Assembly (NCBI GenBank): GCA_007375675.1
Contig: VMEU01000004.1
Location: forward strand, 1 to 62,606
DNA: 62,606 bases
Reading direction: 5' to 3'
Source of the DNA: Parcubacteria group bacterium Greene0416_39
GTDB lineage: Bacteria; Patescibacteriota; Minisyncoccia; Minisyncoccales; UBA10102
Part shown: positions 2,317 through 48,204 of the stretch, in pieces
How positions within the stretch are numbered: position 1 is the stretch's first letter
Layout of the letters: each line of letters begins with the position of its first letter
Notes under the pieces: generated by a model
Told to the model about the DNA's origin: nothing
Database searches by the model: none
What the model saw: the letters and a program-made list of their open reading frames with translations, nothing else
Program-made: the position numbers and the translations under genes

Positions 2317-2326
2317 GTTGTATAAT
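2299..2326 (+). promoter_or_regulatory. Promoter TTGAGT-16-TATAAT, 7 nt upstream of rpiB ATG
   Basis: Hexamers at 2299-2304 and 2321-2326. ATG at 2334. Confidence 0.45.
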
Positions 2327-2333
2327 CAGGAGA

Positions 2334-4833: not shown

Positions 4834-4858
4834 TCCTTAGCTCGGTTAAGGAAACAGT

Positions 4859-5833: not shown

Positions 5834-6837
5834 AACCAAAGTTTGATCTTATATCGGTGGGGGATACGCAGTATGACGTGTTTCTTGAATTGGAAGAGGA
5901 AACAAAGATTCTCCGTGATGAACAGGAGCAGAGAGACTACTTAGGATTGGTGTTTGCTGAGAAAATCCCGGTACAATCATATACTGCAGTTCCTGCGGTG
6001 GGGAACTCGGTCAACGTTGCGATTGGAGCCTCTCGTCTTGGCCTGAAGACTGCCCTCTATACTGTCTTGGGAGATGATCGCGTGGGGAAAGAGGAACTTG
6101 AGATCTTTAAAAAAGAAAAGGTTTCCACAGACTACATTGCGTGGGACAAAAAGCGCGGGAGCAATTTTTCTGCAGTGCTCAATTACAAAGGAGAAAGAAC
6201 CATTCTGGTGTTTCACGAACCAAGAGATTACAACCTTCCCAAGTTAGCTCCTGCAAGGTTTTTGTACTACAGCTCGCTTGCTAAAGATCACGAGAAGCTC
6301 CATACGCAAATTCCTTCATACATCAAAAAATCTGGAGCAAAGCTTGTGTTTAATCCAGGAAGCCATCAGTTAAAAGAAGGTCTTTCAGTTCTCCAGCCCA
6401 TTTTACAGGTGACCTCTGTATTTTTGGTAAACAAAGAAGAAGCGCAAGAGCTTCTTGGCACAACAGAACAGGATGTGAAAATACTTTTGGAGCTTTTATC
6501 CCGCTGCGCGGGATCCCGCGAAGCGGGACAAGGGCCTGAAATTGTGGTAATCACAGATGATGGCAAGGGATCCCATTGTTTTGACGGCACGAATTTCTAT
6601 CACTTGGATATTTTTCGCGTTCCAGTGAAAGAAATGACAGGAGCGGGAGACGCGTATTCTACTGGATTTGTGAGCGCCCTCGCATATGGAAATAACGTTA
6701 AAGAGGCAATGCGTTGGGGAGCAGTGAACGGAGCGTCTGTTATTCAAAAGATTGGCGCTCGAGAGGGTCTCTTGAGAAAAGACGAGATGGAAAAGATGCT
6801 GCAAGAAAATCCTGGGTTTCAGCCCATTATCATATAA
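5830..6837 (+). CDS. PfkB-family carbohydrate kinase
   Basis: Ribokinase-like layout with a C-terminal TGAGDAY motif. It carries the 30-nt double-hairpin insert at 6499-6528. Confidence 0.8.
   Translation: MKPKFDLISVGDTQYDVFLELEEETKILRDEQEQRDYLGLVFAEKIPVQSYTAVPAVGNSVNVAIGASRLGLKTALYTVLGDDRVGKEELEIFKKEKVSTDYIAWDKKRGSNFSAVLNYKGERTILVFHEPRDYNLPKLAPARFLYYSSLAKDHEKLHTQIPSYIKKSGAKLVFNPGSHQLKEGLSVLQPILQVTSVFLVNKEEAQELLGTTEQDVKILLELLSRCAGSREAGQGPEIVVITDDGKGSHCFDGTNFYHLDIFRVPVKEMTGAGDAYSTGFVSALAYGNNVKEAMRWGAVNGASVIQKIGAREGLLRKDEMEKMLQENPGFQPIII
6499..6528. repeat. 30-nt tandem double hairpin inside pfkB-family gene
   Basis: TCCCGC-TGC-GCGGGA followed directly by TCCCGC-GAA-GCGGGA. Confidence 0.85.
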
Positions 6838-6840
6838 TCC

Positions 6841-7737
6841 ATGCCAAAAGTTTTTGTTACGAAAAATATACCAGAAAAGGGGATTGAGCTTTTACAAAAA
6901 GCAGGATACGAGGTTGCGATAGGTTCCAACGCAAAGGGAGCTCACGCCGTGTTGTCTTTGCTTACCGATCATATTGACGCACGGTTCATGGACTCAATTG
7001 GTTCTCAACTGAAGGTAATCTCAAACATGGCTGCTGGTTTGGACAACGTTGATCTTGATGTGGCAAAAGAGCGTGGTGTTGCCGTGAGAAATACCCCCGA
7101 CGTGTTGACTGAATCGGTTGCAGAGCACGCCGCAGCTCTGATTTTAGGAACTACACGGCGTGTTGCCGAGGGCGATCGGTTTGTGAGAGCAGGAAAATTC
7201 AAGGGGTGGGATCCCGCACTGCTCTTAGGAATAGAATTGAATGGAAAGACACTTGGCATAGTGGGCCACGGACGAATCGGATGCCGCCTCGCAGGTATTA
7301 TGCAGAAAGGATTTGGGATGCGAGCGGTCTATTACGATACGGCGCGCGACTCTGTAAAAGAAGAAACATGCGGTATTACGTATGCTTCTTTTGAAGATCT
7401 GTTGAAAGATTCAGACGTGGTGAGTTTGCACGTGCCTTTATTGCCAGGAACTCGCCACCTCATAGGGGAGAAGGAGTTGCGGCTGATGAAGCCGACTGCG
7501 TATCTTGTCAACACGGCTCGTGGCGCAATAGTTGATGAAAAGGCATTGGTCAAGGCGCTCAAAGAGCAATGGATTGCAGGAGCCGCTCTTGATGTGTTTG
7601 AGAATGAACCCAAGCTTGCACCAGGGCTTGCAAAGCTCCAGAACGTGATTCTTACCCCTCACATTGCCTCTGCTACCAAAGAAACCAGAGAAAAAATGGC
7701 AGAGCTTGCCGCACAAAATATTATTGCCGTTTTGTAA
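6841..7737 (+). CDS. D-isomer-specific 2-hydroxyacid dehydrogenase (glyoxylate/hydroxypyruvate reductase-like)
   Basis: NAD-binding site GKTLGIVGHGRIGCRLA, plus NTARGAIVDE and TPHIASAT catalytic-region motifs. Confidence 0.85.
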   Translation: MPKVFVTKNIPEKGIELLQKAGYEVAIGSNAKGAHAVLSLLTDHIDARFMDSIGSQLKVISNMAAGLDNVDLDVAKERGVAVRNTPDVLTESVAEHAAALILGTTRRVAEGDRFVRAGKFKGWDPALLLGIELNGKTLGIVGHGRIGCRLAGIMQKGFGMRAVYYDTARDSVKEETCGITYASFEDLLKDSDVVSLHVPLLPGTRHLIGEKELRLMKPTAYLVNTARGAIVDEKALVKALKEQWIAGAALDVFENEPKLAPGLAKLQNVILTPHIASATKETREKMAELAAQNIIAVL

Positions 7738-7743
7738 ATTTGT

Positions 7744-8121
7744 ATGGCAAAAACAAGCATACACATTCAAAAAGATTTTAATAAACCTTGGGGAGGGTAT
7801 TTAAAGTTTATCGAAAATGCGCCGTGCACGGTGAAAATCATTGTTGTAAAAAAGGACGCAGCGCTTTCTTTGCAGACTCATAAACTGCGAGCCGAGTTTT
7901 GGTATGTAATTTCAGGAAAGGTAGTAGCTACCATTGGCAAAGATAAAAAGCATCTAAAGAAAAGCGTGTTAAATCCAGGAGACACGATTAAATCTCCAGT
8001 AGGTTTTCTTCATCGTATAGAGGGGATTCAAGCTTCCAAAGTTCTTGAAATTTCTTTGGGAACTTTCAGAGAAAACGATATTGTGCGCCACGAAGACAAG
8101 TACGGGCGAGCACCAAAATAG
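7744..8121 (+). CDS. Cupin, type II phosphomannose isomerase C-terminal domain-like
   Basis: KPWGGY...SLQTHKLRAEFWYVISG...ENDIVRHEDKYGR matches the ManC-type cupin pattern. Confidence 0.75.
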   Translation: MAKTSIHIQKDFNKPWGGYLKFIENAPCTVKIIVVKKDAALSLQTHKLRAEFWYVISGKVVATIGKDKKHLKKSVLNPGDTIKSPVGFLHRIEGIQASKVLEISLGTFRENDIVRHEDKYGRAPK

Positions 8122-8498: not shown

Positions 8499-10643
8499 AT
8501 GAGAATACTACTCTTTGTAAGCTTAGTTGCGGCAAGTTTCTTTGGCTTTGCTTTTTTTGTTTCTGCAAGTTCTCCTTTTGATATCACCTTTCCAATCCCA
8601 GAGCTTGGCAACTGCCAAGATCAGGCAGGGTGCAAGGCCTTTTGTGATAACTTTGCCAATAAAGATGCGTGCATTGCCTTTGCCCAAAAACATGGGTTAG
8701 CAAGCGACGAACAGGTAGAAGAAGTAAGGAACCTGCCTGCCGTTGGGCCTGGCGGATGCCAGAGTGAATCAGAGTGCCGGGCCTACTGTGACGACTCAAA
8801 TAATGTGGAAGAATGCCTTGCTTTTGCCCAAGAGCATGGCCTTATTAGTAAAGAAAAAGTAGAGAAGACAAGAGAATTTATCAAAAGCGGCCCTGGCGGG
8901 TGCAAAGGGCCAAAGGAGTGCCGTGCATATTGCGAGGATGCGAGCAATCAAGATGAGTGTTTCGCGTTTGCAGAAGAACATAACTTAATCCCCAAAGAAG
9001 AGCTTGAGCGAGGCCGGGCACTTTCAAAACAAGGCGGGCCTGGAGGATGCAAGAGCGAGCAAGAGTGCCGCGCGTATTGCCAAGACCCTACCCATACAGA
9101 GGAATGCTTGGATTCTGCAGTAAAGCTTGGGATGCTGAGCGAAGAACAAGCAAAGAGAATTAAAAAAGCAGCGGTGTTAGGCGGCCCAGGAGGCTGCAAA
9201 GGAGAGGAGTGCCGCACATACTGTGAAGACCCTGCTCATCAGACAGAATGCATTGCGTTTGCAGAGGAGAATGGGTTTATGTCTCCAGAAGATGCTGCGC
9301 GAGCAAGGAAATTTGCAGGCAAAGAGGGTCCAGGAGGGTGTAAAGGAGAACAATGCCGAACGTTTTGTGAGAGTCCAGGCAATGAACAAGCATGTCTTGA
9401 ATTTGCAGAAAGAGAAGGATTAATGCCAGCTGAAGAAGTTGCAAGAGCAAGGAAGTTTCTCACGGTTTCTGAGCAAGGAGGGCCAGGGGGATGCAGAGGT
9501 ATTGAATGCCGGGGCTACTGTCAAGATCCTGCTCATCAGGATGAATGTTTTCAGTTTGCAAAAGGCAACGGACTTCTTCGCGCAGAAGACGAACAGAATT
9601 TTGAAGCAGGCAAGAAACTTCAAAAGGTGGTGCAGGAGTCTGGAGGCCCTGGAGGATGCAAGTCAGACCAAGAATGCCAGGCCTACTGTTCAGATCCTAG
9701 CCATGGAGAAGAATGTATAGCATTTGGTGCGACGCACGGAGGTATTCCAGAAGAAGAAGTACGCAAGATGCTCAAGGAGTTTACCGAGGAGAGACATTCA
9801 GGCCCTGGAGAGTTTCGTCCCTCAGGGGATTTCAGGCGCTTTGAAGAAGAATCCCAGAAACGATTTGAAGAGTTTAGGCAGTTGGAGCACCAGTTCCGCG
9901 GGAAAGAGTTTCCCGCCCAGGGCGGGCCCGCCTTTGGCGGGGGCCCAGGCCAACCAACAGGCCCCGCTAACTTTGCGGGTCCTGGCGGTTGCACTTCTCC
10001 TTCAGAATGTATCAAGTATTGTACCGAGCACAAAGAAGAATGCTTTAGTTTTGGTCCTCCTGGTAAGCCTGGCACTACGCCTCCAGAAGGTGGTATCCCC
10101 CCTGGCCGTGAGTTTGGGCCTCCCAAGCCAGAACAAACTCAACAGTTCCAGCAGTTCAAAAACGAAGGAGATAAGAGAGAATTGTTCAAACAAAAGTTTG
10201 AGGAGTTTAAGCCCCCAGAAGGATTCAAACCTCCAGAAGGTTTCCATCCTCCTGATAGGTCTCAGATAAAAGAATCTATTCCACAAGATAGTCGTGCAGC
10301 AGCCTGTACTGGAGAGGGAGGGGTTTGGGATGGAACCACGTGTCGGCCGCCCAAAGAACCTACTCAATTCTTCCCTGAAGGAGGATTCCCGCAACAACAA
10401 ACCGAGCGACAAGTCCAGCAACAAATGCTTGAACAGCAGATTCAACAGCAAGTACAGCAGGTGCAACAGCTTCAGCTGCAGCAACAACAGCAGCAGCAGA
10501 TTCAACCTCCTGCTCAGCAATTTTTCCCGAGTTCAGGAGGAACCTCTACTCCTCCACCTAGTTTTACCCCGCCACCGAGTACCCCTCCAGCAGGAGGTTC
10601 CATCATTGACGCAGTTCGCTCATTCCTCAGGCTCAAGCCTTAG
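8499..10643 (+). CDS. Secreted cysteine-rich repeat protein (9 x ~48-aa four-Cys units) with Gln/Pro-rich tail
   Basis: Signal/TM at the N-terminus. Nine GPGGCxxxxECxxYCxDxxxxxEC(I/L)xFAxxxG units. The tail is poly-Q (QQLQLQQQQQQQIQ) then Pro-rich. Confidence 0.75.
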   Translation: MRILLFVSLVAASFFGFAFFVSASSPFDITFPIPELGNCQDQAGCKAFCDNFANKDACIAFAQKHGLASDEQVEEVRNLPAVGPGGCQSESECRAYCDDSNNVEECLAFAQEHGLISKEKVEKTREFIKSGPGGCKGPKECRAYCEDASNQDECFAFAEEHNLIPKEELERGRALSKQGGPGGCKSEQECRAYCQDPTHTEECLDSAVKLGMLSEEQAKRIKKAAVLGGPGGCKGEECRTYCEDPAHQTECIAFAEENGFMSPEDAARARKFAGKEGPGGCKGEQCRTFCESPGNEQACLEFAEREGLMPAEEVARARKFLTVSEQGGPGGCRGIECRGYCQDPAHQDECFQFAKGNGLLRAEDEQNFEAGKKLQKVVQESGGPGGCKSDQECQAYCSDPSHGEECIAFGATHGGIPEEEVRKMLKEFTEERHSGPGEFRPSGDFRRFEEESQKRFEEFRQLEHQFRGKEFPAQGGPAFGGGPGQPTGPANFAGPGGCTSPSECIKYCTEHKEECFSFGPPGKPGTTPPEGGIPPGREFGPPKPEQTQQFQQFKNEGDKRELFKQKFEEFKPPEGFKPPEGFHPPDRSQIKESIPQDSRAAACTGEGGVWDGTTCRPPKEPTQFFPEGGFPQQQTERQVQQQMLEQQIQQQVQQVQQLQLQQQQQQQIQPPAQQFFPSSGGTSTPPPSFTPPPSTPPAGGSIIDAVRSFLRLKP
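8607..10089 (+). repeat. Coding tandem repeats (nine four-Cys units)
   Basis: GGCCC(T/A)GG(A/C)GG(A/G)TGC... recurs about every 140-150 nt. Confidence 0.8.
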
Positions 10644-12623: not shown

Positions 12624-12643
12624 TATGCATCTAACGAGGGCTA

Positions 12644-12664
12644 TACAAAGGTCCGTCCTTTGTA
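12644..12664. repeat. REP-like hairpin TACAAAGG-TCCGT-CCTTTGTA (copy 1)
   Basis: Perfect 8-bp stem with a 5-nt loop, directly downstream of the transposase stop. Confidence 0.85.
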
Positions 12665-12665
12665 G

Positions 12666-13319
12666 TTATTCGAGGAGGAGAGAGGCAATATCTTTTGGAT
12701 ATTCTTCTAGCTCTTCTACAAAAACTTTATATTCTTGTTGCGGAAATTTTTGAGAAAAGAAAGCAAATATTTCATTCGTATCTACCCAATCTTGTTTTCT
12801 CTTTCCTAGATAGTTTGGGTAGCTCGAGTACGGATAACTACACAAAGGTCCGTCCTTTGCAAGTAGTTCTTTGGGATTTTGGTGTATGTATTTTGATACA
12901 TATACAAATTGTTCATCTCTTTCTATTAAAACTGCTTTGTATCTTCCTTGGAAAAGCGGGCCTACCCGTTGATATGTTCTATTAAAATATCCTGAGTAAC
13001 TTGTTGCAAGAGCTCTCATAAATTTTTCCATCCCCCTCTCCACGAGATTTTTTATCAGCAGATGGAAGTGGTTTGGCATAAGGCAATATGCCAAAAGGTG
13101 TACTTGCTTATTGCAATTTAGTGGTTTTCTTCGAGGGATTATCTCTTTAGGATTTTTGAGATCCTGGTGTTCTGGCGGGAGCAAGTATTCTTTGAGAAAA
13201 TAAAGAAAGGTCCTATAGTCTTTTTCGGTAGGAAAGATGTTTTGCTTTGCTACTCCACGATTATAAATATGGTAGTACCCGCCCTCCACAAAGCTCTTTA
13301 TTACATTTTTTGCAGGCAT
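12666..13319 (-). CDS. IS200/RAYT-like Y1 (HuH) transposase
   Basis: HuH motif (MPNHFHLLI) and YIHQNP tyrosine motif. Start taken at MPAKN (13319). Flanked by CAAAGG-TCCGT-CCTTTG hairpins. Confidence 0.8.
   Translation of the reverse strand: MPAKNVIKSFVEGGYYHIYNRGVAKQNIFPTEKDYRTFLYFLKEYLLPPEHQDLKNPKEIIPRRKPLNCNKQVHLLAYCLMPNHFHLLIKNLVERGMEKFMRALATSYSGYFNRTYQRVGPLFQGRYKAVLIERDEQFVYVSKYIHQNPKELLAKDGPLCSYPYSSYPNYLGKRKQDWVDTNEIFAFFSQKFPQQEYKVFVEELEEYPKDIASLLLE
12836..12866. repeat. REP-like hairpin (copy 2, inside transposase CDS)
   Basis: AACTAC-A-CAAAGG-TCCGT-CCTTTG-CAA-GTAGTT. It encodes ...AKDGPLC... on the minus strand. Confidence 0.8.
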
Positions 13320-13376
13320 ATCTTGAGGTGAATATATGAACTCTGATATAATAATATAAGATATAAGAGGATTATG

Positions 13377-13393
13377 CAAAGGTCCGTCCTTTG
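13377..13393. repeat. REP-like hairpin CAAAGG-TCCGT-CCTTTG (copy 3)
   Basis: Identical 17-mer located between the transposase start and the ASCH gene. Confidence 0.85.
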
Positions 13394-13402
13394 TATTATG
13401 CT

Positions 13403-21571: not shown

Positions 21572-21881
<310 letters not shown>

Positions 21882-37260: not shown

Positions 37261-37671
37261 ATGCCTACAATTCATCAACTTCTGAAAAAAAAGAGAAAGC
37301 CGCTTGCAAGCAAGAGCAACACTCCTGCTTTGACTTTTGGGTTTAACGTGAAAAAGAACCAGCCCGTTGAATACCCGTCTCCTTTTAAAAGGGGAGTGTG
37401 CATTAAGGTATTTACGACAACTCCAAAAAAGCCAAACTCTGCTTTAAGAAAGGTTGCAAGGGTGCGATTGTCCAACGGCATGGAGGTAACGGCATATATT
37501 CCAGGAGTAGGCCATAATCTTCAAGAGCACTCTGTGGTGATATTGAGAGGGGGAAGGGTGAAGGATTTGCCTGGCGTGAGATACCACATTGTTCGAGGCA
37601 TGCTTGACGCCTCGGGCGTTGAAGGGAGAAAACAAGGGAGATCGCAATACGGAACAAAAAAGCCCAAGTAA
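37261..37671 (+). CDS. rpsL: 30S ribosomal protein S12
   Basis: [13 protein letters not shown]..., [30 protein letters not shown]. Confidence 0.95.
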
Positions 37672-37756
37672 AATGCAAATCCGCAAATGACTGCGAATGT
37701 ACAAATACGAGTATTCGCGGCATTCGCATAGATTTGTAGATTCGCATTATATTTTT
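37672..37756. repeat. Palindromic intergenic element, copy 2 (rpsL|rpsG)
   Basis: AAATGCAAATCCGCAAATGACTGCGAATGTACAAATACGAGTATTCGCGGCATTCGCATAGATTTGTAGATTCGCATTAT... It fills the whole spacer. Confidence 0.9.
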
Positions 37757-38224
37757 ATGCCAAAACTCAAATTCAAAAAGCATGTTCTTGCTCCAGATAC
37801 CGTGTATGGCAGCGTCATGGTAGCGCGGTTCATCAACAAAGTGATGCAAAAAGGCAAGAAAGCAACTGCAAGAAAAATCGTGTACGACGCGTTTGCATTG
37901 GTTCAAAAAGAATTGAAAAAAGAACCCATTGAAATATTTGAAAAAGCGATTGAAAACGTTGCTCCGCTTCTCGCCGTTAAATCAAAGAGAGTTGGAGGCG
38001 CAACCTACCAGGTTCCAGTGGAAGTGAAAGGAGACAGAAGGGTGGGATTAGCCATGCGCTGGATCTTAGAATCTTCCCGAAAAGGGAAAGGGAAGCCCAT
38101 GGCGCAAAAACTTGCCCAAGAGCTGCTGAATGCCTACAAGAACGAAGGGTCAGCAGTAAAGAAACGGGAAGAAACGCATCGCATGGCCGAAGCCAACCGT
38201 GCATTTGCACATTTCGCTTGGTAA
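37757..38224 (+). CDS. rpsG: 30S ribosomal protein S7
   Basis: Start at [21 protein letters not shown] and [12 protein letters not shown]-like C-terminus. Confidence 0.95.
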
Positions 38225-38230
38225 TACTGT

Positions 38231-40336
38231 ATGTCCCGCCTCTATCCCATAGAAAAATACCGAAATATTGGAATTATTGCCCACATCGATGCAGGGAAAA
38301 CCACAACCACCGAGCGCATTTTGTTTTACACGGGAGTTTCCCACAAGCTGGGAGACATTGACGAGGGAACTACCGTGATGGACTGGATGGCGCAAGAAAG
38401 AGAACGGGGGATCACCATTACTTCAGCAGCTATTACGTGTTTTTGGATTCGTACGAGAGACGTGGGCAACAAAGAAAAGGAACATCGCATTAATATTATT
38501 GATACTCCAGGCCACATTGACTTTACGGCCGAGGTTCAGCGATCTTTGCGAGTGTTAGACGGAGCAGTTGTGGTATTTGACGGAGTCGCGGGAGTAGAGC
38601 CCCAGTCTGAAACCGTGTGGCGCCAGGCAGATAAGTTTGGAGTTCCAAGGATATGCTTTATCAATAAGCTTGATAGAACCGGAGCTTCATTTGAAAAGGC
38701 TTTTCATTCTATTCAGAGTAAACTAACTCCCAACGCAGTAGCTCTTCAGTTTCCCATTGGCGAGGAAGATGCGTTTTCTTCCATTATTGATCTCTTGGCG
38801 ATGAAGGCTTACACCTTTGAAGGAGAACTGGGCTCTCAAGTAAAAGAAGCAGAGATTCCTGTCTCGATGCTTGCTAAAGCAAAGGAATGGAGGCAGAAAC
38901 TCGTGGAAAAAATTGCGGGAGAAGACCAGGGTTTGTTAGAAGCGTATATTGCGGGATCTGAGATTTCCACAGAAAAACTCCGGGCAGTGTTGAGAAAAGC
39001 TACCTTAAACAATACTCTTATTCCCGTGTTCACCGGTTCTTCTCTAAAAAATAAAGGAGTTCAGCTCGTGCTTGACGGCGTGTTGGATTATCTTCCAAGC
39101 CCCGCTGATTTGCCTTCAGTAAAAGGCATTGATGTAAAAACCTCCCAAGAGATTACCCGTTCTCCAAAAGACGAAGAGCATTTTTCAGCGCTCGCGTTTA
39201 AAATTGCGTCTGATCCTTATGTGGGAACTCTTACGTATTTTCGCGTGTATTCAGGTTCTCTGCAAAAAGGTTCGTATGTTTTAAACACAATAAGCGGAGA
39301 AACAGAGAGAATCAGCAGAATCTTTCGCATGCACGCCAACGACAGAGAAGAGGTGGACGATCTCTTTGCGGGAGACATTGCCGCAACCGTTGGTTTGAAA
39401 GATACGAGCACTGGGCATACCCTGTGCGATTCAGCTGCTCCCATAATCTTGGAACAGATTTCATTTCCAGACCCTGTTATTTCCATTCGCATTGAGCCAA
39501 AAACAAAGGCAGACCAGGAAAAGATGGGTCTTGCCTTGAAGCGTTTGTCTGATGAAGATCCGACATTCCATGTGAAAGGAAACCTTGAAACAGGCGATAC
39601 CCTGATAGCTGGCATGGGAGAGCTTCATCTCGAAATTATTGTTGACCGAATGAAACGGGAGTTTGGCGTCCAGGCAAACGTGGGAAGGCCCCAGGTTGCC
39701 TACAAGGAAACCATAAAGAAAGAAGCCACAGCCGAAGGGAAATACGTAAGGCAGTCAGGGGGTAAGGGGCAATACGGCCACGTGTTTTTGAAGGTACAAC
39801 CCAAGGCAAGAGGAGAAGGGTTTGAATTTGTAGACGAGATCAAGGGAGGCGCCATTCCCAAGGAGTTCATCTCTCCGGTGGAAAAAGGAATCAAAGAGGC
39901 AATGGACAAGGGGATCTTGGCAGGGTACCCTCTTGTGGATCTTCAAGCAACCTTGTTTGACGGTTCCTTTCACGAGGTTGACTCCTCTGAATTTGCTTTT
40001 AAGATTGCTGCTTCCATGGCCTTGCAAGATGCGGCAAAGAGGGCGGGTTTGGTGCTCTTGGAACCTGTGATGTCGCTTGAAGTTATGATCCCTGCTGATT
40101 TTTTGGGAGACGTGATTGGAGACATTTCTTCAAAACGAGGAAGGATTGAAGAAACAGAAGACAAGGTGAATTTAAAAATCATAAAGGCAAAAATTCCATT
40201 AGCTGAGATGTTTGGGTATGCAACCACTCTTCGCTCATTGACAGAAGGAAGAGGAACCTTTACTATGGAGTTTGACGCTTATGAGGAAGTTCCTGGCAAT
40301 GTTTCCCAGGAGATCATTGAAGGAAAAAGACGATGA
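38231..40336 (+). CDS. fusA: Elongation factor G
   Basis: NIGIIAHIDAGKTTTTERIL and DTPGHIDF. 701 aa. Confidence 0.97.
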   Translation: MSRLYPIEKYRNIGIIAHIDAGKTTTTERILFYTGVSHKLGDIDEGTTVMDWMAQERERGITITSAAITCFWIRTRDVGNKEKEHRINIIDTPGHIDFTAEVQRSLRVLDGAVVVFDGVAGVEPQSETVWRQADKFGVPRICFINKLDRTGASFEKAFHSIQSKLTPNAVALQFPIGEEDAFSSIIDLLAMKAYTFEGELGSQVKEAEIPVSMLAKAKEWRQKLVEKIAGEDQGLLEAYIAGSEISTEKLRAVLRKATLNNTLIPVFTGSSLKNKGVQLVLDGVLDYLPSPADLPSVKGIDVKTSQEITRSPKDEEHFSALAFKIASDPYVGTLTYFRVYSGSLQKGSYVLNTISGETERISRIFRMHANDREEVDDLFAGDIAATVGLKDTSTGHTLCDSAAPIILEQISFPDPVISIRIEPKTKADQEKMGLALKRLSDEDPTFHVKGNLETGDTLIAGMGELHLEIIVDRMKREFGVQANVGRPQVAYKETIKKEATAEGKYVRQSGGKGQYGHVFLKVQPKARGEGFEFVDEIKGGAIPKEFISPVEKGIKEAMDKGILAGYPLVDLQATLFDGSFHEVDSSEFAFKIAASMALQDAAKRAGLVLLEPVMSLEVMIPADFLGDVIGDISSKRGRIEETEDKVNLKIIKAKIPLAEMFGYATTLRSLTEGRGTFTMEFDAYEEVPGNVSQEIIEGKRR

Positions 40337-40497
40337 CTATCAAAGAACTAAAAACTTTACTTGACCAAGCAAGAGGGAAAATCATTGTGGTGGAAGACGA
40401 AAAACCCATCATGGTGATCACGCCATACGAGGAACAGAGCTTGTCTCCAATGCCTCAAGAAAAAGCGGGGTTGACACTTGATGATTTGCCGCTATAA
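40333..40497 (+). CDS. Small ORF (54 aa) between fusA and tuf, hypothetical
   Basis: ATGA overlap with the fusA stop. MTIKELKTLLDQARGKIIVVEDEKPIMVITPYEE... has a Phd/YefM-like flavour. Too short for the ORF track. Confidence 0.35.
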   Translation: MTIKELKTLLDQARGKIIVVEDEKPIMVITPYEEQSLSPMPQEKAGLTLDDLPL

Positions 40498-40498
40498 T
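40471..40498 (+). promoter_or_regulatory. Consensus promoter TTGACA-16-TATAAT upstream of tuf
   Basis: TTGACA at 40471-40476 and TATAAT at 40493-40498. It is embedded in the end of the 54-codon ORF. Confidence 0.55.
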
Positions 40499-40536: not shown

Positions 40537-41730
40537 ATGGCAGGAAAATTTGAGAGAACAAAACCTCACGTGAACGTTGGCACCATTGGCCATGTTGACC
40601 ACGGAAAAACAACCTTGACCGCCGCGATTCTTCACGTATTGCGGCTTAAGGGGTACAACGCATCAGAAAAGTCGGTTGACCAAATTGATTCAGCTCCAGA
40701 GGAAAAAGCGCGAGGCATCACCATTAATATCAGCCATTTGGAGTATGAAACCGAGAAGCGCCACTACGCGCACATTGACGCTCCAGGGCACGCAGACTAC
40801 ATTAAGAACATGATTACGGGAGCCGCCCAGATGGACGGCGCCATTCTTGTGGTTTCTGCTCCAGACGGCCCAATGCCCCAGACGAGAGAACACATTCTTT
40901 TGGCAAAACAGGTAGGATTGCCATCTATTGTCGTATTTTTGAATAAGTGCGACGCAGTTGATGATCCTGAAATCATTGACCTTGTGGAGTCTGAAGTGAG
41001 AGAACTTTTAAAGAAATACAACTTCCCAGGAGATACTGTTCCCGTGATTCGTGGATCCGCATTGAAAGCGTTGGAGGCAAAGTCTGCAGATGAGGAAGCG
41101 GCAAAGCCGATTGTTGAACTCATGAAAGCAGTGGATGAATATATTCCAGAGCCGCAAAGAGAAGTAGACAAACCCTTTTTGATGGCAGTGGAAGACGTGT
41201 TTTCTATTGAAGGGAGAGGAACAGTTGCAACAGGGAGAGTGGAACGAGGCGTAGTTAAGGCAAACGAGGAAGTGGAGCTCGTAGGATTGAGGCCTACCAC
41301 CAAAACCGTTGCAGTCTCTATGGAAATGTTTAACAAGACCCTAGACGAGGCAAGAGCAGGGGACAATGTTGGCATTCTATTGAGAGGTTCAAAGAAAGAA
41401 GACATTGAGAGAGGCCAGGTTTTGGCAAAGCCCGGAACGTCAACTCCCCACACTGAATTTGAGGCAGAAGTGTACGTTCTTGCCAAAGAAGAAGGAGGCC
41501 GCCACACTCCGTTCTTTACAGGATATAAGCCTCAGTTCTATTTCCGCACCACTGACGTGACAGGAGACGTTACCTTGCCCACAGGCACTGAAATGGTGAT
41601 GCCGGGAGACACCGTGAATGTAACGGTAAAGCTCATTCAGCCCATTGCAATGGAAGAAAAGCAGAGGTTCGCAATCCGCGAGGGAGGAAAAACCGTTGGA
41701 GCAGGCGTAGTTTCTAAAATAGCAGCGTAA
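40537..41730 (+). CDS. tuf: Elongation factor Tu
   Basis: [17 protein letters not shown] and DAPGHADY. 397 aa. Confidence 0.98.
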
Positions 41731-42077
41731 TGCCAAAGGCTAAGCACCAAGAAGAAACGCCAAAGGTAATGCCTCAACAAAAGGTGAGGATCCGTTTAGC
41801 TGCCTATGATCACAAGGTTATAGACGCCTCTGCAAAGCAGATCATTGACGCGGTGCTGCGCGAGGGATGCGAAATTATAGGGCCAGTGCCTCTTCCTACA
41901 GAAATCAGGAAGTACACGGTGAACCGTTCCTCGTTTATTCACAAGGATGCACGAGAGCAGTTTGAAAGCCGCGTCCACAAACGCCTCATTGACATTTTAA
42001 ACCCAACCCAGAAGGTCATTGAGTCCCTCTCAAGTCTCAACATGCCAGCTGGAGTTGATATTGAAATAAAGATGTAA
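41730..42077 (+). CDS. rpsJ: 30S ribosomal protein S10 (N-terminally extended)
   Basis: [21 protein letters not shown]...[21 protein letters not shown]. Confidence 0.93.
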
Positions 42078-42103
42078 TCCTTAATCTAGTTAAGGAACCA
42101 AAG

Positions 42104-42127
42104 AATCGCCAACGGGGCGATTTTTTG
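42104..42127 (+). terminator. Intrinsic terminator after rpsJ
   Basis: AATCGCC-AACGG-GGCGATT followed by TTTTTTG. A second hairpin, TCCTTAA-TCTAG-TTAAGGA, lies at 42078-42096. Confidence 0.65.
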
Positions 42128-42195
42128 TTCTACCTTGACATTTTTTGATATTGAAGGTATATCTATCCTACGTATCCAGATATCAGGAGGGAGTG

Positions 42196-42960
42196 ATGAG
42201 CGCCATGTCGTCCAACAGTACTCCCTCATGGCCGCAGTTGAGGGAGTTATTTCACGAAATGCTTTCTCAATTGTTTGAGGAGGCGAAAGTTGCTCGCGAG
42301 TACGCAGTGTCATATCGGGACTTCAGGGTAGGATGTGCCGGGCTGGCATACAACACGGAAACCGGAAAATGGGAAATCTTTCGGGGAGCGAACCTTAAGG
42401 TGTCGCGGAATGGGCGTCCGGTATGCGCAGAGTCAATTGTGGTACAGGCTGCGCGCGCTAGGGGTTATAATCTCATCATCGGCTTGGGAATTGTGGCAGA
42501 GACGCAACGCGACGATGACAGCGGAGTGGTTCTCGATACCTTGACGCCCTGTGCGGAGTGCCGAGAGACCCTTCTTGCTATCCCAGCCATGAGTCTACGG
42601 TCCCTTATTGCCACGGCAACCCCTGACCTGAGCACCCAAGAAGTTCGCTCTTTTGGTGAGGTCCTCAAGATACACGGCTCGGACGGAAGGTCGTATCCCC
42701 AGACGGCTGATTCTCCCATGTTGGCTGGAGACTTGGATCGGCTCCGTGCAATAGCAAGGGTACGACTCGTTAATTTACTGGAAGTTGCCAATGATCTTCT
42801 CGGCGTGCTCTTGCGTGATTCCGAGACTGCAACGAAGGAAAAAATTGAGCAGTGTAGGAGAAACGCCGAGAAAGAGATCGCAATTGCCCGTGGACTGGGG
42901 ATTGGTAACGATCCAGTGGTGGAGAAGTTGATAAGACGGCTTCATCTCGTGAAGCCATAG
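42196..42960 (+). CDS. Cytidine-deaminase-like protein with ~110-aa C-terminal helical extension
   Basis: SD GGAGGGAG 3 nt before the ATG. YRDFRVGCAG, VCAES (C-A-E) and TPCAECRE (PCxxC) align with tetrameric Cdd motifs. GC is higher than in neighbouring genes. Confidence 0.7.
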   Translation: MSAMSSNSTPSWPQLRELFHEMLSQLFEEAKVAREYAVSYRDFRVGCAGLAYNTETGKWEIFRGANLKVSRNGRPVCAESIVVQAARARGYNLIIGLGIVAETQRDDDSGVVLDTLTPCAECRETLLAIPAMSLRSLIATATPDLSTQEVRSFGEVLKIHGSDGRSYPQTADSPMLAGDLDRLRAIARVRLVNLLEVANDLLGVLLRDSETATKEKIEQCRRNAEKEIAIARGLGIGNDPVVEKLIRRLHLVKP

Positions 42961-42976
42961 GGCGAAATCGTTCGTC

Positions 42977-43016
42977 AAAGAGGCGTCGTCTTGTATGCGG
43001 CGCCTCTTTTATTTGA
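42977..43016 (+). terminator. Intrinsic terminator after deaminase-like gene
   Basis: AAAGAGGCG-15 nt-CGCCTCTTT followed by TATTTG. Confidence 0.6.
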
Positions 43017-43142
43017 ACTGCTAATTACGTTTATATCTCGCTTCGTTTGCGATCGCTAACCAAGCGAGATAGTGCGTATACTATATGCGAGAATAAAGCG
43101 TTTGTTGAAATCGGAGATCAACAACCAGAAGTTAAAAATATA

Positions 43143-43170
43143 GTTAAAACTTACGATCGTAGCTTTTAAC
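43143..43170. promoter_or_regulatory. 28-nt near-palindrome GTTAAAAcTTACGATCGTAgCTTTTAAC upstream of rplC promoter
   Basis: Inverted arms around a TACGATCGTA centre, ending 18 nt before the -35 hexamer. Possible operator. Confidence 0.3.
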
Positions 43171-43187
43171 GATTTTGCCAATTGATG

Positions 43188-43216
43188 TTGACATTTGGTA
43201 TTGGGTCATATATACT
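43188..43216 (+). promoter_or_regulatory. Promoter TTGACA-17-TATACT for rplC operon
   Basis: Hexamers at 43188-43193 and 43211-43216. Confidence 0.55.
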
Positions 43217-43222
43217 CAACCC

Positions 43223-43309
43223 ATGAGGTTCGTCATTGGAGCGTGACGGAAAATAGGAAAGTACTGCCCATGAAATTGATGAGGGGAGTACCCTCGTTTT
43301 TGTTAGAAT
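43223..43309 (+). promoter_or_regulatory. Structured rplC leader with terminator-like hairpin (possible r-protein attenuator)
   Basis: GAGGG-GAGTA-CCCTC plus GTTTTTGTT lies at 43281-43304. GGGGAGTAC can pair instead with GTACTGCCC (43261-43269). Confidence 0.4.
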
Positions 43310-43912
43310 ATGAAAGCTTTGTTAGGGAAAAAAATTGGAATGACGCAGGTCTTTAATGAGAAAGGAGCTACGGTTCCTGTAACCTTGGTGGAAGCAGGAC
43401 CCTGCAAAATCCTTCAGGTGAAGACCAAAGAAAAAGACGGATATGAAGCCGTTCAGTTAGGGTTTGAGTTATTGCCGCAAAGAAAGGTAGGAAAATCCAT
43501 GCGAGGCAAGGAATTCCGATTTATCCGCGAGTTTCGATCAAAAAAGCAGGGAGAAGTTTTTCCTCAACAAGGCGAGAGTGTTGACGCCGCCATTTTTCAA
43601 GAAGGGGATTTAATTGAGATCTCAGGAATTTCCAAAGGAAAAGGGTTTGCTGGAGGCGTGAAGCGATACGGATTTCATGGGAGAAATGCAACCCGCGGCA
43701 CCAAGCATGAACAGCGAACTATAGGTTCGGTGGGTACCTCAAGGCCTGCTCACGTGAGAAAAGGAAAGCGCATGCCAGGGCACTTGGGAGTAGACAGGGT
43801 AACGGTGAAGAACCTCAAGATTGTGAAAATTGACGCTGAAAAAAATGTTGTGGCAATTGAAGGAGCAGTCCCAGGAAGAAGAGGAACATTACTTGAGATA
43901 CGAAGTATTTAG
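43310..43912 (+). CDS. rplC: 50S ribosomal protein L3
   Basis: MKALLGKKIGMTQVF and GKGFAGGVKRYGFHG. Confidence 0.95.
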   Translation: MKALLGKKIGMTQVFNEKGATVPVTLVEAGPCKILQVKTKEKDGYEAVQLGFELLPQRKVGKSMRGKEFRFIREFRSKKQGEVFPQQGESVDAAIFQEGDLIEISGISKGKGFAGGVKRYGFHGRNATRGTKHEQRTIGSVGTSRPAHVRKGKRMPGHLGVDRVTVKNLKIVKIDAEKNVVAIEGAVPGRRGTLLEIRSI

Positions 43913-44934: not shown

Positions 44935-45714
44935 ATGGAACGAATAATCACAAAACATAGGCCCGAAAAAAGATTGCTTATTTCCCTCGCAAAAACCGGA
45001 GGGAGAAACGCAACAGGCCGCATCACCATACGTCATCATGGGGGAGGTTCTCGCATGCTTTATCGTATGGTTGACTTTGGGCAAGAATATCTTGGAGTTG
45101 AAGGGAAAGTGCTTGGGATTGAATACGATCCAAATCGAAACGCATATCTTGCGCTCGTAGATTATGGAGAAAAAGGCAGAGGGTATCTTCTGGCGCCTCA
45201 AGGGGTACACGTTAAAGATACGGTGCTGTGCGCGGAAAAAACAGAGGCAAAAACCGGCAACAGAATGAAACTAGAAAACATTCCAGTAGGAACCATGGTG
45301 TACAATGTGGAGTTAGAACCAGGGAGAGGAGGAAAGATTGTGCGAGGAGCAGGAACATCAGCAAAGCTGATGACCGTTGAAGGCGCGCTTGCTTTGATGC
45401 AACTTCCTTCGGGGGAAGTGAGAAAGGTTTCTTCTCAATGCTTTGCTTCTATTGGAATGGTTTCTAATCCAGAATTTAAAGACAGGGTTATAGGCAAGGC
45501 GGGAAGCAATAGAAACAAAGGATGGCGTCCAAGCGTTCGAGGGACTGCGATGAATCCGGTTGATCATCCTCATGGGGGCGGAGAGGGGAAAACGCCAAGA
45601 GGCATGAAGCATCCCAAGACTCCCTGGGGCAAACCAGCATTGGGGGTGAAGACTAGAAACAAGAAAAAGTGGACAACAAAACTCATTATTTCCCGCCGAC
45701 CAAAGAAAAAGTAA
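44935..45714 (+). CDS. rplB: 50S ribosomal protein L2 (short N-terminus)
   Basis: GGRNATGRITIRHHGGG and MNPVDHPHGGGEGK. Confidence 0.95.
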   Translation: MERIITKHRPEKRLLISLAKTGGRNATGRITIRHHGGGSRMLYRMVDFGQEYLGVEGKVLGIEYDPNRNAYLALVDYGEKGRGYLLAPQGVHVKDTVLCAEKTEAKTGNRMKLENIPVGTMVYNVELEPGRGGKIVRGAGTSAKLMTVEGALALMQLPSGEVRKVSSQCFASIGMVSNPEFKDRVIGKAGSNRNKGWRPSVRGTAMNPVDHPHGGGEGKTPRGMKHPKTPWGKPALGVKTRNKKKWTTKLIISRRPKKK

Positions 45715-45800
45715 AATGCAAATCAACAAATGACTGCGAATGTACAAATACGAGTATTCGCGGCATTCGCATATTATTCGTAAATTCGCATTATATTTAT
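45715..45800. repeat. Palindromic intergenic element, copy 3 (rplB|rpsS)
   Basis: AATGCAAATCAACAAATGACTGCGAATGTACAAATACGAGTATTCGCGGCATTCGCATATTATTCGTAAATTCGCATTAT... Confidence 0.9.
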
Positions 45801-46178: not shown

Positions 46179-46673
46179 ATGCAGTCTAAAGCTTATCTAA
46201 GGTATTTGAGAATAGCTCCGAGAAAGGTGAGGCTTGTCGCAGATCTTATCCGGGGCAAATCAGTTGAGGAAGCTCAGATCGTTTTGCGTTTTGCAAACAA
46301 GGGTGGAACGACCCCGCTCTTGAAACTTTTAAATTCCGCGGTTGCTTCAGGCGTTCATAATTTTCAGCTTGACCCTGCGAATTTGTATATTGCCAGGATT
46401 CTTGTTGACGAAGGGCCTAAGCTAAAACGGGTGTTTCCGAGGGCAAGAGGAAAAGCAGACCAGATACAAAAGAAAACTTCGCACATCACTCTCGTGCTTG
46501 ACGAAAAAGTAAAGAAAGCTCCTGCGCAAGGGGGGAAAGAGGTGTCAACAACAAAAACGAAGGAAGTTTCTTTTCCTAAAACCGAGAGGCAAAAATTCCG
46601 ACCGCAGCAGGAGATAGAAAAGAAACCACAAGTTGGGAAGAGACTTAGAATGTTTAGAAGAAAAGTGATATAA
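46179..46673 (+). CDS. rplV: 50S ribosomal protein L22 (C-terminally extended)
   Basis: LRIAPRKVRLVADLIRGKSVEEA and RARGKADQIQKKTSHITLVL. Confidence 0.93.
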   Translation: MQSKAYLRYLRIAPRKVRLVADLIRGKSVEEAQIVLRFANKGGTTPLLKLLNSAVASGVHNFQLDPANLYIARILVDEGPKLKRVFPRARGKADQIQKKTSHITLVLDEKVKKAPAQGGKEVSTTKTKEVSFPKTERQKFRPQQEIEKKPQVGKRLRMFRRKVI

Positions 46674-46764
46674 ATTATAATGCAAATTTGCGAATGATAT
46701 GCGAATGCCGCAAATAGTTATTCGCATCATTCGCATAAAATTTGTAGATTAGCATTAGTATTGT
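46674..46764. repeat. Palindromic intergenic element, copy 4 (rplV|rpsC), variant core
   Basis: ...AATGCAAATTTGCGAATGATATGCGAATGCCGCAAATAGTTATTCGCATCATTCGCATAAAATTTGTAGATTAGCATTAG... Confidence 0.85.
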
Positions 46765-47400
46765 ATGGCACACAAGGTTCATCCAAAATCGTTTCGTATC
46801 AAAGAGACCAAAGACTGGAGCTCAAGGTGGTTTGTAAAGAAAAACGTTCCCCAATTGCTCAAAGAGGATTTTCTTATTCGTTCGTATGTAGACAAAAAGC
46901 TCAAAGAAGCCTCCATACAGAATATTGAGGTGGAGAGATTTCCCGGCAAGGTGAATGTAATTATTTTTTCTGCAAGGCCCGGGTTAATAATTGGAAGAGG
47001 AGGCGCGGGCATTGAGCTCTTGAGAAAGGAGATTCAAAAGATTGCGCATTTGGCAAAAGACGTGCGCATTGAAATACAGGAGATAAAGAACCCCTGGGAA
47101 TTTGCTTCTCTAATTGCGCAGTTTGTCGCTTTTCAGCTTGAAAAACGCATGCCCCACCGCAGAACTTTAAAGCAAACGTTGAGCAAGGTTATGGCGGTTA
47201 AGGGGATTGAGGGAGCTCGCATTGAGGTTGGTGGGCGTCTCGGAGGAGCTGAAATAGCAAGGCGAGAATGGCAGCAAAAAGGCAGGCTTCCCAGAGGAAC
47301 CTTGAGAGCCGACATTGACTATTCTTTGAAAGAAGCATATACCAGGTACGGAACCATTGGAGTGAAAGTTTGGTTGTACAAAGGGATGAAATTCGAGTAA
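46765..47400 (+). CDS. rpsC: 30S ribosomal protein S3
   Basis: MAHKVHPKSFRI, GLIIGRGGAGIE (KH domain) and GRLGGAEIAR. Confidence 0.95.
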   Translation: MAHKVHPKSFRIKETKDWSSRWFVKKNVPQLLKEDFLIRSYVDKKLKEASIQNIEVERFPGKVNVIIFSARPGLIIGRGGAGIELLRKEIQKIAHLAKDVRIEIQEIKNPWEFASLIAQFVAFQLEKRMPHRRTLKQTLSKVMAVKGIEGARIEVGGRLGGAEIARREWQQKGRLPRGTLRADIDYSLKEAYTRYGTIGVKVWLYKGMKFE

Positions 47401-47481
47401 TAATTCAAATCTACGAATGACTGCGAATGCCGCAAATAGTATTTGTACATTCGCATAGCATTTGTAGATTAGCATTATATT
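47401..47481. repeat. Palindromic intergenic element, copy 5 (rpsC|rplP), core inverted
   Basis: TAATTCAAATCTACGAATGACTGCGAATGCCGCAAATAGTATTTGTACATTCGCATAGCATTTGTAGATTAGCATTAT. The segment between GCGAATG and CATTCGC is the reverse complement of that in copies 1, 2, 3 and 6. Confidence 0.9.
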
Positions 47482-47886
47482 ATGTTAACACCAAGAAAGA
47501 TAAAATTTAGAAAGTGGCACAAAGGCCGCTCCAAAGGCAATGAAACGAGAGGAAAAGAATTGAATTTTGGAAGCTATGGCTTAAAATCCCTTGGGACTAA
47601 ATGGATTACTGCGCGCCAGCTGGAAGCGGCTCGCCGCGCCATTATGCGCTACCTTAAAAAGGGAGGAAAGGTGTGGACGAGAATTTTTCCCGATAAGCCC
47701 ATTACAACCAAAGGCGCAGAAACTCCAATGGGCGGAGGAAAGGGGGGAGTGGATCACTACGCTTTTCCCATTAAGCCAGGAAGAATTATATTTGAAGTGG
47801 AGGGAATTTCAGAAGGCCTTGCAAAGGAAGCGTTGCGGGAAGCTGCCTCCAAGATTCCTTTGAAGACAAAATTTGTTAAGAAGTAA
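47482..47886 (+). CDS. rplP: 50S ribosomal protein L16
   Basis: [16 protein letters not shown] and RMGGGKG-like PMGGGKGG. Confidence 0.95.
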
Positions 47887-47970
47887 AATGCAAATCCGCA
47901 AATGACTGCGAATGTACAAATACGAGTATTCGCGGCATTCGCATATTATTTGTAAATTCGCATTATATTT
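47887..47970. repeat. Palindromic intergenic element, copy 6 (rplP|rpsQ, where rpmC is expected)
   Basis: AAATGCAAATCCGCAAATGACTGCGAATGTACAAATACGAGTATTCGCGGCATTCGCATATTATTTGTAAATTCGCATTAT... Confidence 0.9.
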
Positions 47971-48204
47971 ATGGCAAAGAAACATCTCATTGGAATAGTG
48001 GTTGGAGACAAGATGGCAAAAACCGTTGTGGTTAAGGTTGAACATTTAAAAGAGCACCCAAAGTATCGCAGGCGATTTCGCGTTCACGAAAGATACAAAG
48101 CGCACGACGAGAAAGGGGAGTATCACGTGGGAGACAAGGTCGTTATTGAGGAAACCCGGCCCATTTCAAAAGATAAACACTGGAGAGTAACCCAAAAGGT
48201 ATGA
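47971..48204 (+). CDS. rpsQ: 30S ribosomal protein S17
   Basis: [17 protein letters not shown]...HPKYRR...[23 protein letters not shown]. Confidence 0.95.

Follow-up and report, generated by a model that had tools for sequence, protein, structure and literature searches.

Between the ribosomal protein genes rpsJ (S10) and rplC (L3), the genome of Parcubacteria group bacterium Greene0416_39 carries a gene for a 254-aa protein in which a divergent cytidine deaminase (Cdd)-like enzyme is joined to an orphan C-terminal tail. The DNA analysed here, referred to as the window, comprises positions 1 to 62,606 of contig VMEU01000004.1, and its source is an ultra-small groundwater bacterium with a small genome, one of the Patescibacteria of the Parcubacteria type. 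The reading we favour, with a probability of about 60%, is that the gene encodes a zinc-dependent, Cdd-like salvage deaminase of a Patescibacteria clade, and that it lies on an autonomous unit inserted into a pre-existing spacer between two operons. The insertion is a modest one of an accessory gene, and it does not break an operon, contrary to an earlier interpretation made from the letters alone (the sequence-only reading). Patescibacteria are reported to lack known nucleotide biosynthesis pathways and to gain nucleotide-metabolism genes by transfer (PMC12455944), and the clade's real substrate bears on pyrimidine salvage in organisms of this kind.

The predicted protein contains the motifs SYRDFRVGCAG, VCAES and TPCAECRE in its N-terminal half, as had been recognised by eye, and residues 24-128 match PF00383 (dCMP_cyt_deam_1) at 33.2 bits (E 5e-8; gathering cut-off 25 bits). 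The zinc-binding and catalytic residues fall at C77-A78-E79 and P118-C119-A-E-C122. All 31 family members of one alignment share A78, E79, P118, C119 and C122, and across alignments of 31 and 137 members these five and F43, V45, G46, G64, N66 and K68 vary little or not at all; either C or H serves as the first zinc ligand in the family. Conservation of these residues indicates that the zinc site and the catalytic glutamate are intact.

When a profile of the family was compared with the Protein Data Bank (PDB), the only strong matches were homotetrameric cytidine deaminases (E 6e-16 to 1e-12), headed by the human enzyme (1MQ0, 6e-16) and followed by those of mouse, yeast and Bacillus. Blasticidin-S deaminase matched at E 2e-3, and TadA, APOBEC, DddA, dCMP deaminase and toxin deaminases were all missing from the 23 PDB matches. 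A structural model was built with AlphaFold2 from the 137-sequence alignment, replacing a single-sequence run of too poor quality (predicted local distance difference test score, pLDDT, of 53), and residues 10-165 of this model have a pLDDT >95. Compared with the PDB by Foldseek, its top 38 matches are all cytidine deaminases (target-normalised template modelling score, TM-score, 0.73-0.84; probability 1.00; 135-140 aligned columns), the best being yeast CDD1 (1R5T), which its depositors titled 'orphan C to U editase'. Blasticidin-S deaminases rank 39th or lower, with TM-scores of 0.64-0.71 and a root-mean-square deviation of about 5.8 A, and no APOBEC, TadA, DddA or other toxin deaminase is found in the top 50 fold matches. 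The sequence-only reading had proposed a nucleic-acid or nucleoside deaminase fold; the deaminase fold stands, whereas its nucleic-acid half has no support, as the top sequence and structure matches are all free-nucleoside cytidine deaminases.

With the Cdd/CDA enzymes of known structure (B. subtilis 1JTK, human 1MQ0, mouse 2FR5 and yeast CDD1 1R5T), the window protein shares the fold across a core of about 135 aa (target-normalised TM-score 0.75-0.84), the three-ligand zinc site and catalytic Glu (C-A-E ... P-C-x-x-C), the F-x-V-G stacking motif and a C-terminal 'ELL..H'-like segment, although identity to these structures is only 21-28%. It is not a single Cdd domain of about 130-145 aa without extensions, but a 254-aa protein with a longer N-terminal helix pair and an 89-aa orphan helical tail, and it differs from Cdd clade-wide in having N66-x-K68 for N-x-E and R41 for Ser. 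Blasticidin-S deaminase, the next-best match group, also has a tetrameric fold of the cytidine deaminase type and a zinc site, but is much the weaker match to both profile and model.

When 1.84 billion cluster representatives were searched exhaustively with HMMER, at least 463 members of the clade were recovered at E<=1e-3; the best 150 of them all match residues 5-165 only. The nearest homologue, P0002, is a 165-aa protein from a Candidatus Yanofskybacteria assembly and is 58% identical over residues 5-165. Source names, where given, are 'Patescibacteria group' or 'Candidatus Saccharibacteria' (P0008 and P0167, for example), and the proteins are annotated as hypothetical or as generic cytidine deaminases. 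The window protein carries every residue that is invariant in the clade, while other members have different N- or C-terminal extensions or none. A word-indexed protein search with the full protein returned only itself; of two scans of JGI metagenomes, the first found no relative and the second, with conserved motifs, found only homologues of <=42% identity. PADLOC, run on the whole protein, and PHROGs gave no match at E<=1, and a literature search found no paper linking Patescibacteria with this deaminase.

The deaminase clade is ordinary and chromosomal, Patescibacteria-wide and uncurated. Its genes were seen in one copy per locus in varied, non-mobile contexts, and in none of 32 family loci did S10 or L3 lie beside the family gene; no second deaminase copy was found in the window. 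The P0002 gene lies upstream of pheS, in a Yanofskybacteria assembly whose own S10|L3 gap holds NYN and TauE genes, and two Saccharibacteria members occupy unrelated housekeeping neighbourhoods. The P0008 gene is near L10/L12 genes and also near genes for a nucleoside 2-deoxyribosyltransferase and for NUDIX and AA_kinase-domain proteins. At 58.9% GC, with 69.5% at third codon positions (GC3), this gene (L088:3825-4415) lies in a locus of 48.3% GC.

The supposed break of a most conserved operon junction did not survive comparison with relatives. In E. coli, rpsJ and rplC are contiguous in the S10 operon, and the L4-controlled leader lies upstream of rpsJ. In the window the start of rpsJ overlaps the stop of tuf, so rpsJ is here the last gene of a str-type operon; the tuf-rpsJ gap is -1 to about 100 nt in most relatives. 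Eighty loci were fetched by S10 similarity (closest to the window S10, at 82% identity, is a Candidatus Wildermuthbacteria assembly), and these best 80 matches in the genome collection, labelled mostly as Patescibacteria with a few evidently mislabelled, all have the arrangement tuf-S10-spacer-L3. Among the 68 that hold both S10 and L3, the gap has a median of 169 nt (range 60-3439, interquartile 101-264, >=450 nt in eight); rpsJ and rplC are contiguous in none, and a deaminase gene is present in the gap of none. Thus, unlike in E. coli, rpsJ goes with tuf here and in the 68 relatives, and a spacer with terminator and promoter precedes rplC, although gene order from rplC onward is the same. 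The operon break in itself carries little weight, because the cassette uses a gap already present in the lineage.

Both signals that bound this gap have equivalents in relatives. By a crude script, a terminator-like hairpin was found in the S10-L3 gap of 39 of the 68, and a GC-rich hairpin with a T-run lies directly 3′ of rpsJ in L008, L010, L011, L013, L015, L016, L033, L052 and L062. The promoter hexamers TTGACA-17-TATACT occur 111-143 nt upstream of rplC in L008, L011, L015, L016 and L062, and nearly so in L013. The rpsJ terminator and the rplC promoter of the window are therefore native. The two palindromes and the promoter that the sequence-only reading had placed before rplC are all present, but its idea of a 'fresh' promoter is unnecessary, since the nearest relatives use the same hexamers and spacing. 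The two hairpins it had seen after rpsJ are likewise present, one of them the terminator with its T-run, which had been assigned to 42104-42127 and is somewhat longer (Table 1).

In Parcubacteria, accessory genes have repeatedly landed in the S10|L3 spacer. In L033 (Nealsonbacteria; 4395-5297) it holds a coiled-coil open reading frame (ORF) and a RelB/YafQ toxin-antitoxin pair; in L010 (Yanofskybacteria; 4337-7775) NYN-domain and TauE genes lie in 3.4 kb; and L008, the nearest relative (1820-2245), has a 141-aa ORF that matches nothing in Pfam but contains two Cys-x-x-Cys pairs. This hotspot adjoins a likely regulatory RNA, the rplC leader described below.

The edges of the cassette were delineated from contigs of other sequencing runs. 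On the left, such contigs match the window only up to 42127-42133, or only from 42134. On the right, a contig of run X13 matches from 43182, with a terminator hairpin, GAACCGCCGATGAGGCGGTTTTTGGT, directly upstream, and a contig of run X4 matches from 43184 with other sequence upstream; relatives that are about 88-97% identical in promoter and leader carry different sequence just upstream of 43182-43184. These breaks define a cassette of about 42134-43181. Without it, the spacer would measure about 180 nt, which is typical for the clade. As terminator, promoter and leader are all present in relatives that have no cassette, the unit landed in a pre-existing inter-operon spacer. A 96%-identical contig of run X6 spans the end of rpsJ, the terminator and the 5′ region of the deaminase gene (42051-42193), so at least one sister strain has the same left junction, and the 42134-42178 module was also found behind another terminator, on a contig of run X11. 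Seven other contigs, drawn from two NCBI genome assemblies, two ENA assemblies and three sequencing runs, carry the 2183-nt region at 100% identity, and the exact deaminase protein is found on eight contigs; identity across independent assemblies shows that the arrangement is not an assembly artefact, yet it represents a single population only.

As the sequence-only reading had described, the gene is self-contained: a strong Shine-Dalgarno sequence serves as its ribosome-binding site, and it has a terminator of its own. The start codon, which had been placed at 42197, is the ATG at 42196 and is backed by N-terminal similarity to P0002. A candidate promoter upstream would be weak, as its -10 hexamer does not have the final T, and it is not among the matches reported by a consensus promoter scan. 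Promoter- and terminator-like matches as a class were no commoner between 40000 and 46000 than in shuffled sequence, and the case for these particular sites is made by their conservation in relatives. A 97.6%-identical contig of 164 nt, from a run guessed to be RNA, gives a weak hint that the deaminase gene is transcribed.

Two of the hairpins in this region behave as dispersed short palindromic repeats. The palindrome at 43031-43072 has high read depth and several different flanks in runs X11, X12 and X13, and although the window holds one copy, a second is present on another contig of equal depth in run X1, the source metagenome. The rpsJ terminator hairpin (42095-42127) has a near-copy on another equal-depth contig of run X1. 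The second palindrome, at 43143-43170, has no further copy in the window or the fetched loci. Two other accounts of the junction were tried and set aside. A duplication of promoter or target site, suggested by TTGACATTT at 42135 and 43188, is weak because the shared part is essentially the -35 consensus; it is also countered by the ATTGATG upstream of the rplC -35, which is not repeated at the left edge, and by the presence of the 42134-42178 module alone in another run. Integron attC sites were considered for the palindromes, but the core sites are unfit by eye, and domain annotation covering about 10 kb on each side shows no integrase.

The composition of the deaminase gene sets it apart. 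It has 53.6% GC and 56.5% GC3 against a window mean of 45.3% (sd 2.6), is the most GC-rich 765-nt block in the 62.6-kb window and, among 71 non-overlapping ORFs, departs furthest from typical synonymous codon usage (z = -2.8). The catalytic domain is at 55.2% GC and the tail at 50.9%. Windowed GC and codon usage thus bear out the foreign look that hand counts had suggested; the figure of about 42% then given for rplC came from one block only, and rplC has 45.6% GC overall. The opposite pattern, in which the gene would sit at this junction across the lineage, with native composition and an ordinary Cdd match at full length, was not seen: the gene is at the site in 0/68 relatives, its composition is an outlier and its Cdd scores fall below cut-off.

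The C-terminal part of the protein is helical and unassignable, as had been said, although it spans about 90 aa and not about 110. In the AlphaFold2 model a disordered linker (166-178) is followed by helices at 178-206, 214-233 and 240-251, with pLDDT of 74-88 and no alignment depth. The tail gave no Pfam, PHROGs or PDB match and nothing at E<=10 in a word-indexed search of 5.8 billion proteins; PADLOC gave no match in a scan of the whole protein, the tail not being scanned by itself. Homology to the C-terminal extensions of Saccharibacteria members of about 250 aa was considered and rejected, as BLASTP produced only gapped stretches of low identity. Contigs from runs X6, X11, X12 and X13, which belong to other studies, are 83-90% identical to the catalytic domain (42169-42702). 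Those that reach 42702 (X11 and X12) diverge right after it, that is, after Gln169, and read depth over the tail is zero in all four runs, from which it follows that the tail is specific to this population. As a strain- or lineage-specific appendage it may serve in oligomerisation or docking, or it may be an extension of recent birth. Because relatives with 83-90% identical DNA do not have it, it is a neat candidate for domain gain in the very recent past.

On the reading we favour, the enzyme would be a zinc-dependent hydrolytic cytosine-ring deaminase from a Patescibacteria-specific clade related to homotetrameric Cdd, and would probably act in pyrimidine salvage by converting cytidine or deoxycytidine, or one of their phosphorylated derivatives, to the uridine form. 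The gene would have arrived by horizontal transfer or relocation, as a monocistronic unit of about 1.05 kb comprising a weak promoter, a strong Shine-Dalgarno sequence, the coding sequence, a terminator and a short dispersed palindrome. It would have inserted between the terminator of rpsJ, where the str-type operon ends, and the promoter and leader native to rplC, a position that would leave both ribosomal transcription units intact.

Several observations weigh against this interpretation. The curated NCBIfam Cdd equivalogs (TIGR01354 / NF004064) score the protein at about 33 bits, against cut-offs of 74-216 (33.9 vs 113.65, 33.7 vs 74 and 32.6 vs 216). In place of the N-x-E motif (human N54/E56), whose residues we take to contact the ribose in canonical Cdd, the window protein has N66-L-K68. 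The Glu of 'NIEN' in 1MQ0 and 1ZAB is the counterpart of K68 in the alignment; the Lys is invariant in the 31 clade members and present in at least 90% of the 137, and Arg41 replaces the canonical Ser before the stacking Phe in at least 90% of the clade. With these contact residues altered, the substrate may not be a plain nucleoside, and a phosphorylated substrate for the clade is at most a reasonable guess. Elevated GC seems to recur in the deaminase family across hosts: of four other genomes checked, three have a family gene that is richer in GC than the locus around it. The GC excess could thus be partly a property of the family itself and need not all reflect recent transfer. The insertion is marked by no transposase, integrase or flanking direct repeats; the dispersed palindrome at 43031-43072, just 3′ of the gene, hints at recombination between short repeats as a possible route, which is speculation. 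Lastly, the gene-bearing contigs are all identical and therefore provide no within-population evidence of selection on the tail.

The altered contact residues invite other views of the substrate. It is conceivable, although unlikely, that the clade defined by R41 and N-x-K68 acts on CMP, dCMP, (d)CTP (cytidine or deoxycytidine mono- and triphosphates) or polynucleotides, and that the newly born three-helix domain changes assembly or targeting in this strain; if so, the tetrameric CDA fold would have a new substrate class, in organisms living on scavenged nucleotides. There is also an outside chance that the enzyme handles some other cytosine-bearing small molecule, such as a nucleoside antibiotic of the blasticidin-S type, to which it would confer resistance, or a modified cytidine, and that its gene is an adaptive accessory lying outside core salvage. 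Clade-wide conservation of R41 and K68, the behaviour of the gene as a mobile accessory unit of atypical composition, and the standing of blasticidin-S deaminases as the next-best relatives in structure and sequence would all suit such a role. Those relatives are, however, far behind cytidine deaminases in the profile comparison (2e-3 vs 6e-16) and lower in structural score and fit, and the clade is widespread in ordinary Patescibacteria chromosomal contexts. A nucleic-acid deaminase (a mutator, editor or toxin), its helical tail targeting nucleic acid or the translation machinery and perhaps explaining the ribosomal-gene location, seems very doubtful. Editing enzymes do share this fold, as the title given to yeast CDD1 recalls, the basic R41 and K68 could touch phosphate, and an orphan tail could be a targeting module; but no APOBEC, TadA or DddA/toxin deaminase appears among the 23 PDB sequence matches or the top 50 folds, PADLOC is silent, no secretion or delivery domain is present, and with S10 and L3 as neighbours there is no adjacent immunity gene. 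Moreover, homologues lie in unrelated housekeeping contexts, never beside S10/L3, and even the closest relatives do not have the tail.

Two further alternatives concern the insertion more than the enzyme. We consider it improbable that the gene is a functionless passenger, recently transferred and tolerated in a neutral spacer, with a tail produced by read-through into formerly non-coding or scrambled sequence. A tail without a homologue anywhere searched, its GC below that of the domain, the divergence of close relatives exactly after residue 169, and a weak candidate promoter that the consensus scan does not list are what such an origin would predict. Against this, the ORF is intact and keeps all catalytic residues, its Shine-Dalgarno sequence is strong and its terminator clean, AlphaFold2 predicts tail helices that are well packed from the single sequence, and an open frame of 89 codons would arise by chance in random sequence with a probability of about 0.014 by our own calculation, (61/64)^89. 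An ancestral presence of the gene at this junction, followed by loss in every sampled relative, is highly improbable. The X6 contig, which puts the left junction in at least one sister strain, would fit such a history, but it is hard to reconcile with 0/68 relatives, the nearest of which have 70-82% S10 identity, with a nearest homologue that precedes pheS in a genome carrying other genes in its own S10|L3 gap, or with the outlying composition and codon usage. Relatives about 88-97% identical in the rplC promoter and leader also differ just upstream of 43182-43184. A Cdd-like salvage deaminase inserted in an existing spacer remains our preferred account.

The leader between the promoter and rplC apparently represents a conserved, undescribed ribosomal-protein leader and candidate attenuator. 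Upstream of rplC most of these genomes have a short conserved element, ACUAGUC or GUACUAACC (GUACUGCCC in the window), followed 15-35 nt further 3′ by a GC hairpin with a conserved loop and then a U-run; the element can base-pair with the loop and 5′ arm of this hairpin, and the terminator then cannot form. In the window, the upstream element GTACTGCCC (43261-43269) precedes a terminator-like hairpin at 43279-43297 and a U-run at 43297-43301, and can pair with 43283-43291 to form a predicted antiterminator, which is also the minimum-free-energy fold. Both helices show compensatory changes. The terminator helix is paired in 91.9% of cells (pair 73:87 being UA 16 / CG 13 / GC 6) and the antiterminator helix in 74.8% (pair 46:77 being GC 21 / AU 7 / GU 3 / CG 2), with slid-partner controls at 15-60%.

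A covariance model of the leader, searched against both strands of 740 kb, gave 47 matches. Forty-five fall in the gap that follows S10, all on the + strand, and 42 of these are followed by rplC; 12 of the + strand matches are in loci outside the seed alignment. The remaining two are reverse-strand matches to the same hairpins, and the window holds a single match. Examples among the 40+ loci are L068:527-602, L015:4439-4511 and L033:5844-5915. Rfam gave nothing for 41900-43500 at gathering score, or at E<=10 beyond chance-level matches, and a literature search found no paper on a Patescibacteria rplC leader. As in E. coli-type S10 operons, a leader with a terminator hairpin and U-run precedes the operon that encodes L4, although here it lies before rplC and not before rpsJ; by analogy, the rplC leader is a candidate for an attenuator that would work like the L4-controlled S10 leader of E. 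coli.

Coordinates of the features are collected in Table 1.

Table 1. Features of the rpsJ-rplC region and palindromic repeats elsewhere in the window.
Feature	Position	Strand	Basis
rpsJ (S10)	41730-42077	+	ORF list; PF00338 on identical contigs
Small hairpin, 7 bp, 5′ of rpsJ terminator	42079-42095	+	Fold
rpsJ terminator, 12-bp stem and T6 run	42099-42127	+	Fold; equivalents in relatives
Inserted cassette, approximate edges	42134-43181	+	Contig matches and breaks in other runs
Candidate promoter of deaminase gene, TTGACA (42135-42140), 17 nt, TATATC (42158-42163)	42135-42163	+	Read from sequence; aligned with rplC promoters
Shine-Dalgarno sequence, AGGAGGGAG	42185-42193	+	Sequence
Deaminase-fold gene, ATG 42196, TAG 42958-42960, 254 aa	42196-42960 including stop	+	PF00383
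Catalytic domain, residues 10-165	42223-42690	+	Alignments, PDB profile, AlphaFold2, Foldseek
Orphan C-terminal tail, residues 166-254	42691-42957	+	AlphaFold2; no homologues found
Deaminase-gene terminator, 13-bp stem (42977-43009) and U-rich tail	42977-43016	+	Fold, z = -3.6
First palindrome, dispersed short repeat	43031-43072 as repeat; 43034-43073 as fold	.	Fold; read depth in related metagenomes
Second palindrome, in AT-rich spacer	43143-43170	.	Fold
rplC promoter, TTGACA-17-TATACT	43188-43216	+	Consensus scan, 11/12
rplC leader	43217-43309	+	Covariance model match 43237-43305
rplC (L3), first gene of downstream ribosomal-protein operon	43310-43912	+	ORF list; PF00297
GCGAAT/ATTCGC palindromes	21573-21648, 37663-37757, 45706-45800, 46670-46764, 47400-47477, 47878-47972		Long hairpin folds, z -3.2 to -4.7

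The local gene order is rpsG, fusA, a 54-aa ORF, tuf, rpsJ, the deaminase gene, rplC, rplD, rplW, rplB and onward. The 54-aa ORF occupies the fusA-tuf gap (40333-40497), with a start that overlaps the fusA stop, and has no Pfam match; a perfect TTGACA-16-TATAAT (12/12) lies in its 3′ end at 40471-40498, just upstream of tuf. The 118-nt stretch 3′ of rpsJ folds with z = -3.5 relative to shuffled sequences. Between the deaminase gene and rplC, the only + strand ORF of >=50 aa is one that begins in the rplC leader and continues into rplC.

Imperfect palindromes of about 40-95 nt, rich in GCGAAT/ATTCGC, occur in spacers of the ribosomal cluster, before rpsG, rpsS, rpsC, rplP and rpsQ, and similar AT-rich repeats fill the S10-L3 spacers of other loci, such as L049, L051 and L083. 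In the window, the rplP-rpsQ interval contains no ORF able to encode L29 (rpmC), and its 84-nt spacer (47887-47970) is filled by a palindromic repeat. Elsewhere in the window, a 714-aa ORF (8499-10643) contains at 8742-9715 four copies of a 74-nt unit encoding a Cys-rich module, GPGGC...ECR.YC. A hairpin-like repeat, GAGGGCTATACAAAGGTCCGTCCTTTGTA, is present in three copies (12636-12664, 12833-12861 and 13367-13395), and a 41-nt GC-rich repeat forms a pair at 3001-3041 and 6496-6536.

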